From NCBI RefSeq assembly GCF_056746865.1, contig NZ_CM163382.1: a stretch of DNA of 64,000 bases. One strand, given 5' to 3'. Shown piece by piece: positions 45,910 to 51,618 of this stretch. The notes beneath the pieces are model-generated. The model was not told the DNA's origin and made no database searches. It worked only from the letters and a program-made list of their open reading frames with translations. The translations under genes and the position numbers were made by a program. Position 1 is the stretch's first letter. Each line of letters begins with the position of its first letter.

Positions 45910-46198
45910 AGTCGAACGTGAACGACGTAAGGCGCAACTGCTTAGCCAGATCCAGCAACAACGGCTGGATCTTTCTGCCAGTCGTCGTGAATGGCTGGAG
46001 GCAACAGGCGCTTACGATCGTCGCTGGAATATGCTGCTAAGTCTGCGCTCCTGGGCGCTGGTTGGCAGTAGCGTGATGGCGATCTGGACGATTCGCCATC
46101 CTAATATGCTGGTCCGCTGGGCCAGACGCGGTTTTGGCTTATGGAGCGCCTGGCGTCTGGTTAAAACGACCCTCAAGCAGCAACAGCTTCGCGGTTAA
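45899..46198 (+). CDS. yqjK: YqjK, 99 aa, GTG start overlapping the yqjE 3' end
   Basis: ORF 45797..46198; GTG at 45899 after GGAG (VSSKVERERRKAQLLSQ). Confidence 0.7.
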   Translation: MSSKVERERRKAQLLSQIQQQRLDLSASRREWLEATGAYDRRWNMLLSLRSWALVGSSVMAIWTIRHPNMLVRWARRGFGLWSAWRLVKTTLKQQQLRG

Positions 46199-46384
46199 TA
46201 ACCTCTCTGGCCGGAGCCATTCCGGCCTTATCCCTCAAATTTTTTGAAGATTTTTGACAGTTTTCCTTGCTAACAATCATCATTCACCACGTTTATGATT
46301 CTCTCCATCGACAGCAACGACGCTAATACCGCGCCCTTGCACAAAAAAACAATCAGCAGCCTGAGTGGCGCAGTGGAGAGTATG

Positions 46385-46777
46385 ATGAAAAAATTAGAAG
46401 ATGTTGGTGTACTGGTAGCGCGCATTTTAATGCCGATTCTGTTTATTACCGCAGGCTGGGGAAAAATTACTGGCTACGCGGGTACCCAACAATATATGGA
46501 AGCGATGGGTGTCCCAGGCTTTATGCTGCCGCTGGTGATTCTGCTTGAGTTTGGTGGTGGTCTGGCAATCCTGTTCGGTTTCCTGACTCGCACCACAGCC
46601 CTGTTTACTGCGGGCTTTACGCTGCTGACGGCATTTTTATTTCACAGCAACTTTGCTGAAGGCGTCAACTCGCTGATGTTCATGAAAAACCTGACAATTT
46701 CTGGCGGATTCCTGCTGCTGGCAATTACCGGTCCGGGCGCGTATAGCATCGACCGCCTGCTGAATAAAAAGTGGTAA
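46385..46777 (+). CDS. yqjF: DoxX-family inner-membrane protein, 130 aa
   Basis: ORF 46295..46777; start at MKKLEDVGVLVARIL. Confidence 0.8.
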   Translation: MKKLEDVGVLVARILMPILFITAGWGKITGYAGTQQYMEAMGVPGFMLPLVILLEFGGGLAILFGFLTRTTALFTAGFTLLTAFLFHSNFAEGVNSLMFMKNLTISGGFLLLAITGPGAYSIDRLLNKKW

Positions 46778-46846
46778 GCACGCGCTATACTTAACGATAA
46801 AAAACGAGGAGGAAGCTCCTCGTTTTTGCTATTGGAGGAGAGAAAT

Positions 46847-47833
46847 ATGGGTCAACTGATTGACGGCGTCTGGCATGACACCTGGTACGATACCAAATCT
46901 ACCGGCGGTAAATTTCAACGTTCAGCTTCCGCATTTCGTAACTGGCTCACTGCCGATGGCGCGCCAGGCCCCACTGGCACAGGCGGTTTTATCGCAGAGA
47001 AAGATCGTTATCATCTCTATGTTTCACTCGCCTGCCCGTGGGCGCACCGCACGCTGATCATGCGTAAACTCAAAGGACTGGAACCGTTTATTTCCGTTTC
47101 CGTAGTGAACCCGCTGATGCTGGAAAACGGCTGGACCTTTGATGACAGTTTTCCGGGTGCAACCGGCGATACACTCTATCAACATGAATTTTTGTATCAG
47201 CTTTATCTCCACGCCGATCCACACTACAGCGGACGAGTTACTGTTCCCGTGCTGTGGGACAAAAAGAACCACACCATCGTCAGCAACGAATCAGCAGAAA
47301 TCATCCGCATGTTCAATACCGCGTTTGATGCGCTGGGCGCGAAAGCTGGTGATTACTACCCATCAGCCCTGCAAACGAAAATTGACGAACTTAACGGCTG
47401 GATTTATGACACCGTTAACAATGGCGTGTATAAAGCCGGTTTTGCCACCAGCCAGCAAGCCTACGACGAGGCGGTAGTGAAAGTGTTTGAATCGCTGGCG
47501 CGACTGGAGCAGATTTTAGGCCAGCATCGTTACCTGACCGGCAACCAGCTAACCGAAGCCGATATTCGCCTGTGGACCACGCTGGTGCGTTTTGATCCGG
47601 TGTATGTCACCCACTTCAAGTGTGATAAGCACCGCATCAGCGATTACCTGAATCTGTATGGTTTCCTGCGCGATATCTACCAGATGCCGGGGATTGCCGA
47701 AACTGTCAATTTCGATCACATCCGTAATCACTACTTCCGCAGCCATAAGACCATCAACCCTACGGGGATTATTTCAATTGGTCCGTGGCAGGATCTCGAT
47801 GAACCGCATGGACGAGATGTTCGCTTCGGTTAA
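46847..47833 (+). CDS. yqjG: glutathionyl-hydroquinone reductase (Xi-class GST), 328 aa
   Basis: ORF 46826..47833; start at MGQLIDGVWHDTWYD preceded by GGAGGAG. Confidence 0.85.
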   Translation: MGQLIDGVWHDTWYDTKSTGGKFQRSASAFRNWLTADGAPGPTGTGGFIAEKDRYHLYVSLACPWAHRTLIMRKLKGLEPFISVSVVNPLMLENGWTFDDSFPGATGDTLYQHEFLYQLYLHADPHYSGRVTVPVLWDKKNHTIVSNESAEIIRMFNTAFDALGAKAGDYYPSALQTKIDELNGWIYDTVNNGVYKAGFATSQQAYDEAVVKVFESLARLEQILGQHRYLTGNQLTEADIRLWTTLVRFDPVYVTHFKCDKHRISDYLNLYGFLRDIYQMPGIAETVNFDHIRNHYFRSHKTINPTGIISIGPWQDLDEPHGRDVRFG

Positions 47834-47835
47834 AA

Positions 47836-47868
47836 AAAGGCACCTTACGAGGTGCCTCTGATTATTAG
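47836..47868 (+). terminator. hairpin terminator after yqjG
   Basis: aaggcacc-ttacga-ggtgcct followed by ctgattatt. Confidence 0.5.
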
Positions 47869-47874
47869 CTAAGT

Positions 47875-47995
47875 GCGTGTTATTTATGTCGGATGCGGCG
47901 TGAACGTTTTCTCCAACTTACAAAACGTTTATATTCAATATGTTACAATGCCGCGTAGGCCAGATAAGCGTAGCGCATCTGGCGATTTTGCGCTT
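47875..47995. repeat. REP/BIME elements
   Basis: gtcggatgcggcgtgaacg and tgccgcgtaggccagataagcgtagcgcatctggcg. Confidence 0.55.
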
Positions 47996-48124
47996 GTCAT
48001 CAGTCTTAGCGCGCCTTCACGGCACTTTATTAATTCCTTGAACGAATATTTACTGCCATTTCATTCACGTCTATTCTTAATTTGCTGCTTTAAAAACAAG
48101 TGATTGAGCAAAATTGAGGCAAAA

Positions 48125-48490
48125 ATGGACTGGTATCTGAAAGTACTAAAAAATTATGTCGGTTTCCGGGGTCGTGCGCGGCGCAAAGAGTACTGGATGT
48201 TTATTCTGGTCAACATCATCTTTACGTTCGTGCTGGGGCTGCTGGATAAAATGTTAGGCTGGCAACGCGCTGGTGGCGAAGGCATCCTGACAACAATCTA
48301 CGGTATTCTGGTGTTTTTACCGTGGTGGGCGGTTCAGTTCCGCCGCCTGCACGACACCGACCGCTCGGCGTGGTGGGCACTGCTGTTCTTAATCCCGTTT
48401 ATCGGCTGGCTTATTATCATCGTCTTTAACTGCCAGGCGGGTACGCCAGGCGAAAACCGCTTTGGACCTGATCCAAAACTGGAACCTTAA
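48125..48490 (+). CDS. yhaH: DUF805 inner-membrane protein YhaH, 121 aa
   Basis: ORF 48104..48490; start at MDWYLKVLKNYVGFRGRARRKEYW. Confidence 0.8.
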   Translation: MDWYLKVLKNYVGFRGRARRKEYWMFILVNIIFTFVLGLLDKMLGWQRAGGEGILTTIYGILVFLPWWAVQFRRLHDTDRSAWWALLFLIPFIGWLIIIVFNCQAGTPGENRFGPDPKLEP

Positions 48491-49044
48491 AACAAATCTG
48501 CTCGCCGGATGTCTGACTCATCCGGCTTTTATCATCATGTTGATGAATGAATAATTTACTAATGTTTAGTTAAAATATTTCAATGTCGTTATATAAATTA
48601 CATATAAAAAACAACCATATATTTATCTTAAATATTAAAACCTTTATAACATCCGAAAAAGAAAGATACGAATAGCATTTACACAATACCCGGAATAGAC
48701 TTTCGTCACTTTTAATTAAAGGGATGTTTTTATGCAGTGGTATTTATCCGTATTAAAAAATTATGTTGGTTTCTCTGGTCGCGCACGTCGTAAAGAGTAC
48801 TGGATGTTTACTCTGATTAACGCCATCGTCGGCGCTATTATCAATGTCATTCAATTGATTTTAGGTTTAGAGTTTCCGTTCCTTTCTCTCATTTACCTGG
48901 CAGCAACAATCATTCCGGTCATTGCTCTGTGCGTTCGTCGTCTGCATGATACTGACCGTTCAGGTGCGTGGGCGCTTCTCTATCTGGTACCGATCATTGG
49001 CTGGTTAGTTCTGTTTGTATTTGCCTGTTGGTAATGACTCCAAC

Positions 49045-49548
49045 TTATTGATAGTGTTTTATGTTCAGATAATGCCCGATGACTTTGTCATGCAGCTCCA
49101 CCGATTTTGAGAACGACAGCGACTTCCGTCCCAGCCGTGCCAGGTGCTGCCTCAGATTCAGGTTATGCCGCTCAATTCGCTGCGTATATCGCTTGCTGAT
49201 TACGTGCAGCTTTCCCTTCAGGCGGGATTCATACAGCGGCCAGCCATCCGTCATCCATATCACCACGTCAAAGGGTGACAGCAGGCTCATAAGACGCCCC
49301 AGCGTCGCCATAGTGCGTTCACCGAATACGTGCGCAACAACCGTCTTCCGGAGCCTGTCATACGCGTAAAACAGCCAGCGCTGGCGCGATTTAGCCCCGA
49401 CGTATCCCCACTGTTCGTCCATTTCCGCGCAGACGATGACGTCACTGCCCGGCTGTATGCGCGAGGTTACCGACTGCGGCCTGAGTTTTTTAAATGGCGG
49501 AAAATCGTGTTGAGGCCAACGCCCATAATGCGGGCGGTTGCCCGGCAT
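49045..49548 (-). CDS. insB: IS1 InsB (frame expressed as InsAB' by -1 frameshift), 167 aa
   Basis: ORF 49045..49548, recognised as the IS1 InsB frame. Confidence 0.9.
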
Positions 49549-49742
49549 CCAACGCCATTCATGGCCATATCAATGATTTTCTGGTGCGTACCGGGTTGAG
49601 AAGCGGTGTAAGTGAACTGCAGTTGCCATGTTTTACGGCAGTGAGAGCAGAGATAGCGCTGATGTCCGGCAGTGCTTTTGCCGTTACGCACCACCCCGTC
49701 AGTAGCTGAACAGGAGGGACAGCTGATAGAAACAGAAGCCAC
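49467..49742 (-). CDS. insA: IS1 InsA, 91 aa
   Basis: [43 protein letters not shown]... Confidence 0.95.
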
Positions 49743-49915
49743 TGGAGCACCTCAAAAACACCATCATACACTAAATCAGTAAGTTGGCAGCATCACCTTG
49801 CCTGTTTAGAGGGCAATTCTGGCAGCAATCGTTACGGAAACGATCCGAAATTTGGTTCAAATTAATATTAAAATTGGGGCGATATTTCGCCCCTTGTTAT
49901 TAACAATAACAAATA

Positions 49916-50812
49916 TTATTTTCCGCTAAAAAGTTTGGGAATTTCCCGCAGACACCAGGATTTCGCTTCCCCCATACTGTCACGACGCCAGGCCATAATA
50001 ATATCGATCTCGCTGGTCGATTCCGGGCTGACGACACGCAACCGCCCTTCCGCAATATCTTTTTCGACCATCGGATACGGCATCGTCGCCACGCCAAGCC
50101 CCGCCAGTAATGCCTGACGTTTATCTTCAATCGTGCTCACCGTTAAGCGCGGCTGTTTGTCCAGCAGCTGTACGGTCAACACCGGGCGCTCACGAGCGGT
50201 ATCCGCCACCGCAATTCCACGATATTTCACGCGCGTCACTTCAGATAACGGTTCCGGCTCCTGATGAATCGGGTGATCAGGCGCGGCAACGTAGACGTTC
50301 ATTAACGTATAGAGCTTGCGCGAGTTGATCTCCGACGAGGAACGAAAATGCATATCCGGCGCGATAACAATATCCGCCCGCCCCTGCTCCAGCCGTTCCC
50401 ACGCCCCCGCCAGCACTTCGGTGATAATTGCCAGTTGGGTATTGGCTTTTGCCGCCAGTTTGTCGATTAACGGGAAAAAGGCAGGTGTCGGTACCAGCGC
50501 CTCGGTCACAATGGTGAGATGCGTTTCCCAACCGCGCGCGAGAGCTTCCGCATCGGTAGTCAGTTTATCTGCGGCTTCCAGCAAAACGCGCCCTCGCTCC
50601 AGCAACATCCTCCCGACATTGGTGAATTTGGTGCGATGGCCCGAGCGGTCAAACAGCACCACATCCAGCTCTTCTTCCAGTTTTTGCATGGTGTAGCTAA
50701 GTGCGGAAGGCACGCGTCCCAGCTCATCCGCCGCCGCCGCAAAACTGCCCCGGCGATCGATCGCATCCATAACCCGTAGTGCTTCCAGCGTTAATGCCCT
50801 TTCTTTGGCCAT
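49916..50812 (-). CDS. yhaJ: LysR-family transcriptional regulator, 298 aa
   Basis: ORF 49916..50812; LysR-type HTH (TLEALRVMDAIDRRGSFAAAADELGRVPSALSYTMQKLE). Confidence 0.85.
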   Translation of the reverse strand: MAKERALTLEALRVMDAIDRRGSFAAAADELGRVPSALSYTMQKLEEELDVVLFDRSGHRTKFTNVGRMLLERGRVLLEAADKLTTDAEALARGWETHLTIVTEALVPTPAFFPLIDKLAAKANTQLAIITEVLAGAWERLEQGRADIVIAPDMHFRSSSEINSRKLYTLMNVYVAAPDHPIHQEPEPLSEVTRVKYRGIAVADTARERPVLTVQLLDKQPRLTVSTIEDKRQALLAGLGVATMPYPMVEKDIAEGRLRVVSPESTSEIDIIMAWRRDSMGEAKSWCLREIPKLFSGK

Positions 50813-50916
50813 TTCGTTCTCATTCAGGAAATTTGAACATACCGGGCAGAATATCTGGCTAACAATGTAGCGTCCAGCCCCTTACCATAAAAGGAAGTAA
50901 AGAGAGGTCAAGAATT

Positions 50917-51618
50917 ATGATTACTACCCGAACTGCCAGGCAGTGTGGACAAGCAGACTACGGATGGTTGCAGGCCCGGTATACTTTTTCCTTTGGACAC
51001 TACTTCGACCCGAAATTGTTAGGCTATGCCTCCCTGCGCGTGCTTAACCAGGAAGTGCTGGCCCCAGGTGCCGCCTTTCAGCCGCGAACCTATCCCAAAG
51101 TCGATATTTTAAATGTGATTCTGGATGGAGAAGCAGAGTATCGCGACAGCGAAGGCAATCATGTTCAGGCCAGCTCCGGTGAGGCGTTGCTGCTCTCTAC
51201 CCAGCCGGGTGTCAGCTATAGCGAACACAATCTCAGCAAAGACAAACCGTTAACGCGAATGCAGCTTTGGCTGGATGCCTGCCCGCAGCGAGAGAATCCG
51301 CTGATTCAAAAGCTGGCGCTTAATATGGACAAGCAGCAATTAATCGCCTCGCCAGAGGGTGCGATGGGAAGCCTGCAATTACGCCAACAAGTGTGGCTGC
51401 ACCATATCGTGCTCGACAAAGGCGAAAGTGCGAATTTCCAGTTGCATGGGCCACGCGCGTATTTGCAATCGATTCACGGGAAATTTCATGCGCTTACGCA
51501 TCATGAAGAGAAAGCGGCGCTAACCTGCGGTGATGGGGCGTTTATTCGTGACGAGGCTAACATTACGCTGGTTGCCGATTCCCCACTGCGCGCTTTGCTG
51601 ATAGATTTGCCTGTCTAG
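50917..51618 (+). CDS. yhaK: pirin-like bicupin protein, 233 aa
   Basis: ORF 50917..51618; divergent from yhaJ. Confidence 0.85.
   Translation: MITTRTARQCGQADYGWLQARYTFSFGHYFDPKLLGYASLRVLNQEVLAPGAAFQPRTYPKVDILNVILDGEAEYRDSEGNHVQASSGEALLLSTQPGVSYSEHNLSKDKPLTRMQLWLDACPQRENPLIQKLALNMDKQQLIASPEGAMGSLQLRQQVWLHHIVLDKGESANFQLHGPRAYLQSIHGKFHALTHHEEKAALTCGDGAFIRDEANITLVADSPLRALLIDLPV

Follow-up and report, generated by a model that had tools for sequence, protein, structure and literature searches.

The yhaH-yhaI locus and its IS1 insertion

In this study, we have analyzed a 64,000-nucleotide stretch of DNA from contig NZ_CM163382.1 of RefSeq assembly GCF_056746865.1, referred to here as the window, which carries two adjacent genes of the DUF805 family, yhaH and yhaI, the second of which is interrupted by a copy of the insertion sequence IS1. 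The genes lie in the order yqjF-yqjG-yhaH-yhaI-yhaJ(-)-yhaK-yhaL-cyuA(-), at the same locus and in the same gene order as yhaH (b3103) and yhaI (b3104) of Escherichia coli K-12, both of which are annotated as "DUF805 domain-containing protein". The window differs from K-12 in that its YhaI belongs to another allele class (86% protein identity), lacks the run of seven thymines (T7) found in the K-12 gene and is interrupted by IS1. Taken as a whole, the results make it very likely that yhaH and yhaI form an old tandem, that yhaH is a core gene and yhaI an accessory cassette, and that IS1 truncated yhaI at the level of the strain. The gene pair is known and the truncation is an ordinary strain-level event; only the insertion site is new.

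The yhaH gene (48125..48490, plus strand) is intact and encodes a DUF805 inner-membrane protein of 121 amino acids (aa), as indicated by its open reading frame (ORF 48104/48125-48490), a PF05656 match and the RefSeq annotation. The ORF opens at 48104 and the ATG lies at 48125, with a GAGG Shine-Dalgarno sequence 6 nucleotides (nt) upstream. The protein begins MDWYLKVLKNYVGFRGRARRKEYWMF, carries RRLHDTDRS further on and is 100% identical to YhaH of K-12/C600 and of E. coli 118UI. Directly 3' of yhaH, a terminator scan reveals an intrinsic-terminator-like hairpin, GCCGGATG...CATCCGGC, followed by TTTT (48504..48530, plus strand), suggesting that yhaH and yhaI are separate transcription units. 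Between the two genes lies an AT-rich spacer (48491..48731, plus strand) of 27.8% GC, which forms a GC trough of 28-30% and is presumed to hold the promoter of yhaI and its ribosome-binding site. The 5' part of yhaI (48732..49029, plus strand), recognized by ORF reading and by its Pfam match, comprises codons 1-99 and base 1 of codon 100, while the remainder of codon 100 to codon 118 and the stop (LEGNSGSNRYGNDPKFGSN, then stop) form an orphaned 3' remnant on the same strand (49807..49865). Further downstream, the terminator scan also detects a bidirectional hairpin, GGGGCGATATTTCGCCCC (49876..49893), between yhaI and its convergent neighbour yhaJ, an intact gene for a LysR-type regulator (49916..50812, minus strand), and this hairpin is spared by IS1.

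The element that separates the two parts of yhaI is an IS1 of the IS1B type, 768 bp long and on the minus strand (49030..49797), with imperfect terminal inverted repeats of about 23 bp (GGTAATGACTCCAACTTATTGAT / GGTGATGCTGCCAACTTACTGAT) and a 9-bp target-site duplication, TTGCCTGTT, whose left and right copies lie at 49021..49029 and 49798..49806, respectively. Its transposase genes, insA (49467-49742) and insB' (49045-49548), are both intact, lie on the minus strand, antisense to yhaI, and retain the A6C slippery site. In its length, inverted repeats, insA/insB' frameshift site and 9-bp duplication, this copy, which is the sole IS1 within the window, resembles canonical cases of gene inactivation by IS1 and differs from them in its insertion site only. 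Full-length copies that are 100% identical to it, annotated as "IS1-like element IS1B family transposase", occur on numerous chromosomes and plasmids of E. coli. The insertion breaks yhaI after gene nt 298, and its target corresponds to codons 97-99. When IS1 and one copy of the repeat are removed in silico, a 118-aa ORF is restored that is identical to yhaI of the uropathogenic E. coli strain 118UI; across 6030 bp the window without IS1 is 100% identical to this strain, in which the empty site holds a single copy of TTGCCTGTT. In the window strain, a canonical IS1 has jumped into this target and duplicated 9 bp, leaving a reading frame that ends after residue 99 with a Trp codon and a stop.

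The truncated ORF (48732-49034) encodes 100 aa, begins MQWYLSVLKNYVGFSGRARRKEYWMF, contains RRLHDTDRS and ends in FACW and a stop, where the GG of the Trp codon and the TAA come from the end of IS1. The original prediction had stated that only yhaH remains intact in this strain, and this is correct, because the yhaH product equals K-12 YhaH; yhaI, for its part, is interrupted. Among 5426 complete RefSeq genomes, which form our population sample throughout, the IS1-yhaI junction of the window occurs in none, so the insertion is regarded as private to the strain. Database searches found no record of the exact 100-aa product and no match spanning both halves of the right-junction peptide. The insertion is a strain-private pseudogenisation of a dispensable paralog and, as such, an ordinary and routine event. 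Since yhaH has a terminator of its own and the terminator between yhaI and yhaJ is intact, polar effects of IS1 are not expected.

Damage to yhaI is recurrent. An independent IS1 is found at yhaI nt ~137 in E. coli GCA_045115195.1, and a database protein from another strain has an IS1 end fused to yhaH codon ~93; both insertions have the same orientation as that in the window. The K-12-type yhaI carries its T7 run, GTTTTTTTC, at codons 95-97, and length variants of this run, T6 in 37 and T8 in 44 complete genomes, make up about 4% of the ~2100 carriers of this type. The resulting frameshift proteins, of 139 aa (T6, -1) and 131 aa (T8, +1), are encoded on 345 and 190 contigs, respectively. Either mutation is unusually frequent at this run or assemblies tend to go wrong there, and some of the T6 and T8 variants may be homopolymer errors of assembly. 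With its natural -1 and +1 length variants, the K-12-type yhaI is reminiscent of homopolymer contingency loci; however, its tract is short, the variants are rare and the window allele contains no homopolymer tract (TTT GTA TTT GCC), so that yhaI does not qualify as a phase-variable contingency locus. The insertion in the window is distinct from the IS1 of GCA_045115195.1, from the yhaH-IS1 fusion and from the frameshifts.

Two further observations concern the region around the insertion site. Some IS1 matches elsewhere reach 16-29 nt into the yhaI flank (49001-49029) with reduced identity, which probably represents a selection effect among the ~74,000 places where IS1 is found, or a weak target preference of IS1. 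In addition, many draft and metagenome contigs break within yhaI, at least 24 of them ending 2-4 nt before the IS1 site of the window (equivalent to 49021-49027), and other contigs begin 10-20 nt 5' of the IS1 site and continue uninterrupted, which is at odds with the duplication of 9 bp at a target site.

Family features, orthologs and population variation

Both proteins clearly belong to the DUF805 family. Against the Pfam profile (PF05656; gathering score 25.7 bits), YhaH scores 120.9 bits, the reconstructed YhaI 109.1 and the truncated YhaI 86.9, the last aligning to profile positions 1-99 of 111. YhaH and the reconstructed 118-aa YhaI share 63 of 118 residues by BLASTP (53% identity, E = 2e-44), and both the N-terminal sequences and RRLHDTDRS agree with the description given when they were put forward as indicating a local duplication. 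As evidence for duplication, however, these motifs fail. In an alignment of YhaH, YhaI and 57 homologs (59 proteins) from Bacillota, Actinomycetota, Bacteroidota, Pseudomonadota and other groups, the N-terminal pattern M.WYL.VLKNY..F.GRARRKEYWMF and RRLHD are invariant or nearly so, and because this holds across phyla, the motifs mark the family and not an event at this locus. The invariant columns are Y11, G16, R17, R20, E22, W24, M25, F26 and L28 in the N-terminal part and P62, R69, R70, H72, D73, N107, G110, P113 and K114 further on. The pair displays all three signatures of the family, namely G-R-x-x-R-x-E-Y/F-W before helix 1, R-R-L-H-D after helix 2 and N-x-Y/F-G-x-x-P-K in the tail, the last of which is split from yhaI by IS1 in the window. 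YhaI shares 55-58% identity with homologs from Paenibacillus, Exiguobacterium and Streptomyces and 54% with YhaH. The contig scan with YhaI was driven by exact 8-residue words and returned distant homologs only, none of them from Escherichia, so that it is no evidence for the absence of yhaI elsewhere; synteny was checked by contig look-ups in named genomes.

An AlphaFold2 model of YhaI with a predicted local distance difference test (pLDDT) score of 90.5 places helices at residues 2-13, 20-44, 50-73, 78-85 and 89-99, the stretch 78-99 being kinked at P87, followed by an ordered, non-helical tail at residues 100-118. Kyte-Doolittle analysis gives three hydrophobic segments, as expected of a small three-helix membrane protein, and in the modelled architecture YhaH and YhaI each start with an amphipathic helix, continue with three hydrophobic ones and close with a short conserved tail. 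The IS1 cut coincides with the end of the last YhaI helix. Searches for related solved structures or known folds found none, no NCBIfam family scored above its cut-off, and the PADLOC anti-phage defence models gave no match at E <= 0.01, which places the pair outside the known defence systems. Phage genomes also encode DUF805 proteins, grouped in phrog_12855 ("moron/host takeover"). We further note in Shiga toxin (Stx) phages (Shigella phage 75/02 Stx and POCJ13) an unannotated 129-aa ORF that has the full set of DUF805 motifs (GRASRREFW, RRLHD and NKYG), lies in the nin region and is encoded in the opposite direction to its neighbours.

At the same locus, Citrobacter rodentium carries a 121-aa gene (87% identity to YhaH) and a 119-aa gene (60% to YhaI), followed by the convergent yhaJ and by yhaK; in Superficieibacter electus the locus holds three DUF805 genes (145, 122 and 119 aa), and Intestinirhabdus alba has a YhaI-like gene alone. 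Pairwise identities amount to 74-87% within the YhaH group, 55-64% within the YhaI group and 50-59% between the groups. YhaH falls with the upstream genes of Citrobacter and Superficieibacter (74-87%) and with the genes of Salmonella and Klebsiella (84%), and it adjoins yqjG. YhaI is closer to the downstream genes of C. rodentium, I. alba and S. electus (60-64%) than to YhaH (54%), although the margin is small, and members of its group take the position of the last DUF805 gene before the convergent yhaJ. Because positional orthologs of both paralogs lie in C. rodentium and S. electus, yhaH and yhaI are, as far as sequence and gene order tell, true paralogs that go back to an old duplication in tandem between yqjG and yhaJ in Enterobacteriaceae, one that predates these genera. 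When orthologs are compared over one set of species pairs, divergence at nonsynonymous sites (dN) lies at 0.09-0.15 in yhaH, which is under tight constraint, and at 0.27-0.35 in yhaI, whose rate of evolution is 3-4 times higher. After the duplication, the roles of the two copies would have diverged, yhaH becoming a strongly constrained core gene and yhaI a fast-evolving accessory copy behind an AT-rich region.

The population sample agrees with a division into core and accessory gene. Of 5426 complete genomes, 5419 contain yhaH and about 4360 (~80%) contain yhaI, and a junction with yhaH only is found in 1008; yhaH is a conserved core gene and yhaI is accessory in E. coli. In the yhaH-only junction, as seen in E. 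coli U12A, yhaH ends in LEQE and a stop, followed by a hairpin, TTAAGCACCTTGTAAAAGGTGCTTAA, and then yhaJ, with a spacer of 35 bp. The junction of E. marmotae is orthologous to that of U12A, showing the same sequence with two substitutions, and the genes flanking the U12A junction are ordinary E. coli genes, sharing 97-99% identity with other E. coli and 90-91% with E. marmotae. These two features are most simply explained if the yhaH-only state is ancestral for Escherichia. In Salmonella enterica and Klebsiella pneumoniae, too, yhaH occurs without yhaI. When present, yhaI forms part of a cassette of ~640 bp that extends from the last two yhaH codons to the yhaJ stop and includes the AT-rich spacer at 48491-48731; the gene within it has 43.6% GC. 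Contrary to what had been proposed for this pair, the cassette in Escherichia was probably acquired and did not arise at the locus itself, and homologous replacement of the yhaH-yhaJ spacer would be the most parsimonious route.

Carriers of yhaI fall into two allele classes, ~2294 window/118UI-like and ~2083 K-12-like genomes. The locus thus occurs in three states, with yhaI absent (19%), of K-12 type (~38%) or of window type (~42%); just 168 genomes of the window-like class are at least 99% identical to the window. The two classes differ at 57 of 173 nt at gene positions 136-308 (33% divergence), and this mosaic block, whose main part (gene nt 136-298) lies at 48867..49029 on the plus strand, continues on the far side of IS1 at 49807-49816 (to nt 308). 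Divergence between the classes at synonymous sites (dS) is 0.035 for codons 1-45 and 1.36 for codons 46-118, with a dN/dS of 0.12 in the latter. Judged from these sequence comparisons, the divergent block is a recombinant of between-species depth that spans helices 2 and 3, and both of its versions are under purifying selection.

Regulation, phage dependence and topology

Ler counteracts H-NS, and since Ler also activates yhaI, the AT-rich spacer upstream of yhaI may be an H-NS-silenced promoter region. The activation of yhaI by Ler is 36-fold in enterohemorrhagic E. coli (PMC3891560), and yhaI is also induced by Cpx activation (PMC2731931). In Salmonella, yhaH mRNA is a direct target of the small RNA SdsR, which represses it, and YhaH builds up toward stationary phase (PMC5137417). 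Both yhaH and yhaI were still among the uncharacterised y-genes in 2024 (PMC11551758). Our best inference is that DUF805 proteins are membrane-embedded scaffolds or regulators that would act through the invariant Arg/His/Asp cluster beside helices 1 and 2.

Inner-membrane proteins serve some phages as host factors after adsorption, such as ManYZ for lambda and PtsG for HK97. When yhaH is mutated in E. coli TK001, the strain becomes resistant to the myoviruses PhiWec188 and PhiWec190, and it regains sensitivity on complementation (bioRxiv 10.1101/2024.11.29.626071; PMC12695924). The authors of that study list YhaH together with NfrB and TolA among the membrane proteins required. For some phages at least, YhaH serves as a factor for infection in the inner membrane. 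In being required by PhiWec188 and PhiWec190, YhaH is comparable to ManYZ, PtsG and NfrB, but the likeness lies in phage use and not in family membership.

With regard to topology, the charge distribution predicts, by the positive-inside rule, that the N-terminus and loop 2 are cytoplasmic and the tail periplasmic. Fluorescence of a green fluorescent protein (GFP) fusion is generally read as a sign of a cytoplasmic C-terminus. Localisation of YhaH-GFP has been found to depend on YidC, and the ASKA YhaH-GFP fusion gives a membrane-localised fluorescent signal (PMC3225971).

Origin of yhaI and consequences of its truncation

A local duplication, as claimed by the original prediction, can be upheld in the sense that yhaH and yhaI are true tandem paralogs and that yhaI is the broken copy, but not in the sense of a recent or strain-level event. 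If yhaI had arisen from a recent duplication of yhaH in E. coli or a close ancestor, with the shared N-terminus as a relic of the event, this would account for two adjacent and co-stranded genes of one family with 53% identity, and for first 96 nt that are 78% identical. However, these 96 nt are the only part in which DNA similarity between the genes is detectable; synonymous sites are saturated, with a proportion of synonymous differences (pS) of 0.82 for the E. coli paralogs, beyond correction to dS, and a dS of 1.70 for those of C. rodentium, while dN is 0.41 for both pairs. The existence of same-locus orthologs of each paralog in other genera and the invariance of the N-terminal motif across phyla also speak against it. 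Moreover, over codons 1-32 the share of identical codons is 0.73 between E. coli yhaI and Citrobacter yhaH and 0.62-0.68 within genomes, and because the excess is equally high between the two genera, it derives from neither recent common descent nor gene conversion. A recent duplication is therefore considered extremely improbable. The same 5' similarity could instead reflect an RNA-level constraint on both genes, such as pairing with SdsR, or ongoing gene conversion: all 10 of the two-fold-degenerate codons for a shared residue are identical within the first 32 codons (hand count on the DNA alignment), as are 15 of 22 among all degenerate codons of this kind, and the region -43..+45 of Salmonella yhaH confers SdsR regulation (PMC5137417). 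Nevertheless, this stretch is rich in residues with two-fold-degenerate codons (K, N, Y, F and E), which makes identical codons likelier by chance, and the same-codon excess is not specific to comparisons within a genome and vanishes against Superficieibacter. When the E. coli SdsR seed was paired with yhaH and yhaI by ViennaRNA over -43..+45 and -60..+60, shuffled controls performed equally well inside the reporter-defined region, and part of a stronger duplex, at +36..+56, falls beyond its limits. The codon comparison in three genera, in which the excess is not specific to paralogs of one genome, led us to reject both gene conversion and RNA constraint as candidates for the 5' 96 nt, and we hold such an explanation to be very improbable.

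Whether yhaI was gained or repeatedly lost is a closer question. Vertical inheritance from an ancestral tandem, with independent deletions in U12A-like E. coli, E. marmotae, Salmonella and Klebsiella, is possible although rather doubtful. It would agree with the constant position of yhaI, which always directly precedes the convergent yhaJ, with the presence of a similar GGGGC..GCCCC terminator after the yhaI orthologs of E. coli, C. rodentium and I. alba, and with a DUF805 copy number at the locus that varies among genera (1, 2 or 3). But the yhaH-only junction, with its own hairpin and LEQE end, is common to U12A and E. marmotae and has diverged in proportion, so that repeated loss would need one old deletion that stayed polymorphic across speciation, or an identical deletion that recurred; nor does it fit well with the low GC of the cassette (27.8% in the spacer, 43.6% in the gene) or with its internally mosaic structure and dS above 1. 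Another matter is whether the break of yhaI by IS1 in the window strain abolishes function. The 100-aa product might still be a functional membrane protein, in which case the strain would in effect keep both paralogs; we consider this unlikely. The promoter region, the ribosome-binding site and, in the AlphaFold2 model, all predicted helices up to residue 99 are still present, the product reaches 86.9 bits against PF05656, and many natural variants of YhaI change just the last ~20 residues. What is lost is the 19-residue tail with N107, G110, P113 and K114, that is, 4 of the 18 columns invariant among the 59 homologs and the invariant motif N-x-(Y/F)-G-x-x-P-K, and tail residues 101-110 are modelled with a pLDDT of ~93; the C-terminal variants in the database would be equally expected from decay, and their sample is skewed to late truncations. 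Because invariant residues are lost with the tail, the truncated YhaI is presumably non-functional.

Several points weigh against our interpretation and should be kept in view. The distant homologs were picked by shared 8-residue words, which inflates the apparent conservation of the motifs, and the loss of function of the 100-aa product would follow solely from the lost invariant residues. Four outgroup lineages are too few to decide between gain and repeated loss, and no donor of the yhaI cassette closer than 60-64% identity was found. The fluorescence of the C-terminal YhaH-GFP fusion suggests a cytoplasmic C-terminus, opposite to the positive-inside prediction. Finally, the phage link concerns YhaH and not yhaI.

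Since the pair is already annotated in E. coli and an IS1 in a dispensable gene is routine, the insertion is of little importance as it stands. The contrast between a constrained core yhaH and an expendable, polymorphic yhaI can, however, guide the choice of which paralog to knock out first, and the strain background (yhaI absent, its allele class, frameshifted or broken by an IS element) needs to be checked before DUF805 phenotypes are interpreted, including the dependence of phages on YhaH. The most interesting remainder is the three-state and deeply dimorphic polymorphism of yhaI, which could reflect selection by phages or toxins. Based on the three states at intermediate frequency, the 33%-diverged block under purifying selection and the recurrent loss of the tail through frameshifts and IS1, we speculate, by analogy with the use of YhaH by PhiWec188 and PhiWec190 and with little expectation that it will prove right, that fluctuating selection from phages or membrane-targeting toxins using DUF805 proteins as entry factors at the inner membrane might maintain this polymorphism. 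If so, the IS1 truncation in the window would be a resistance allele and not neutral decay.

Several minor features of the locus may be added. A strict-consensus scan for sigma-70 promoters detected no site 5' of yhaH or yhaI, and an Rfam scan of positions 46000-51500 gave no credible match. One 100-bp bin of the gap between yqjG and yhaH holds 18 differences between the window type and K-12. A region with repeats resembling repetitive extragenic palindromic (REP) elements lies 5' of yhaH in the same gap (47880-48000), and yhaH is described in the y-ome paper as "surrounded by repeat sites".

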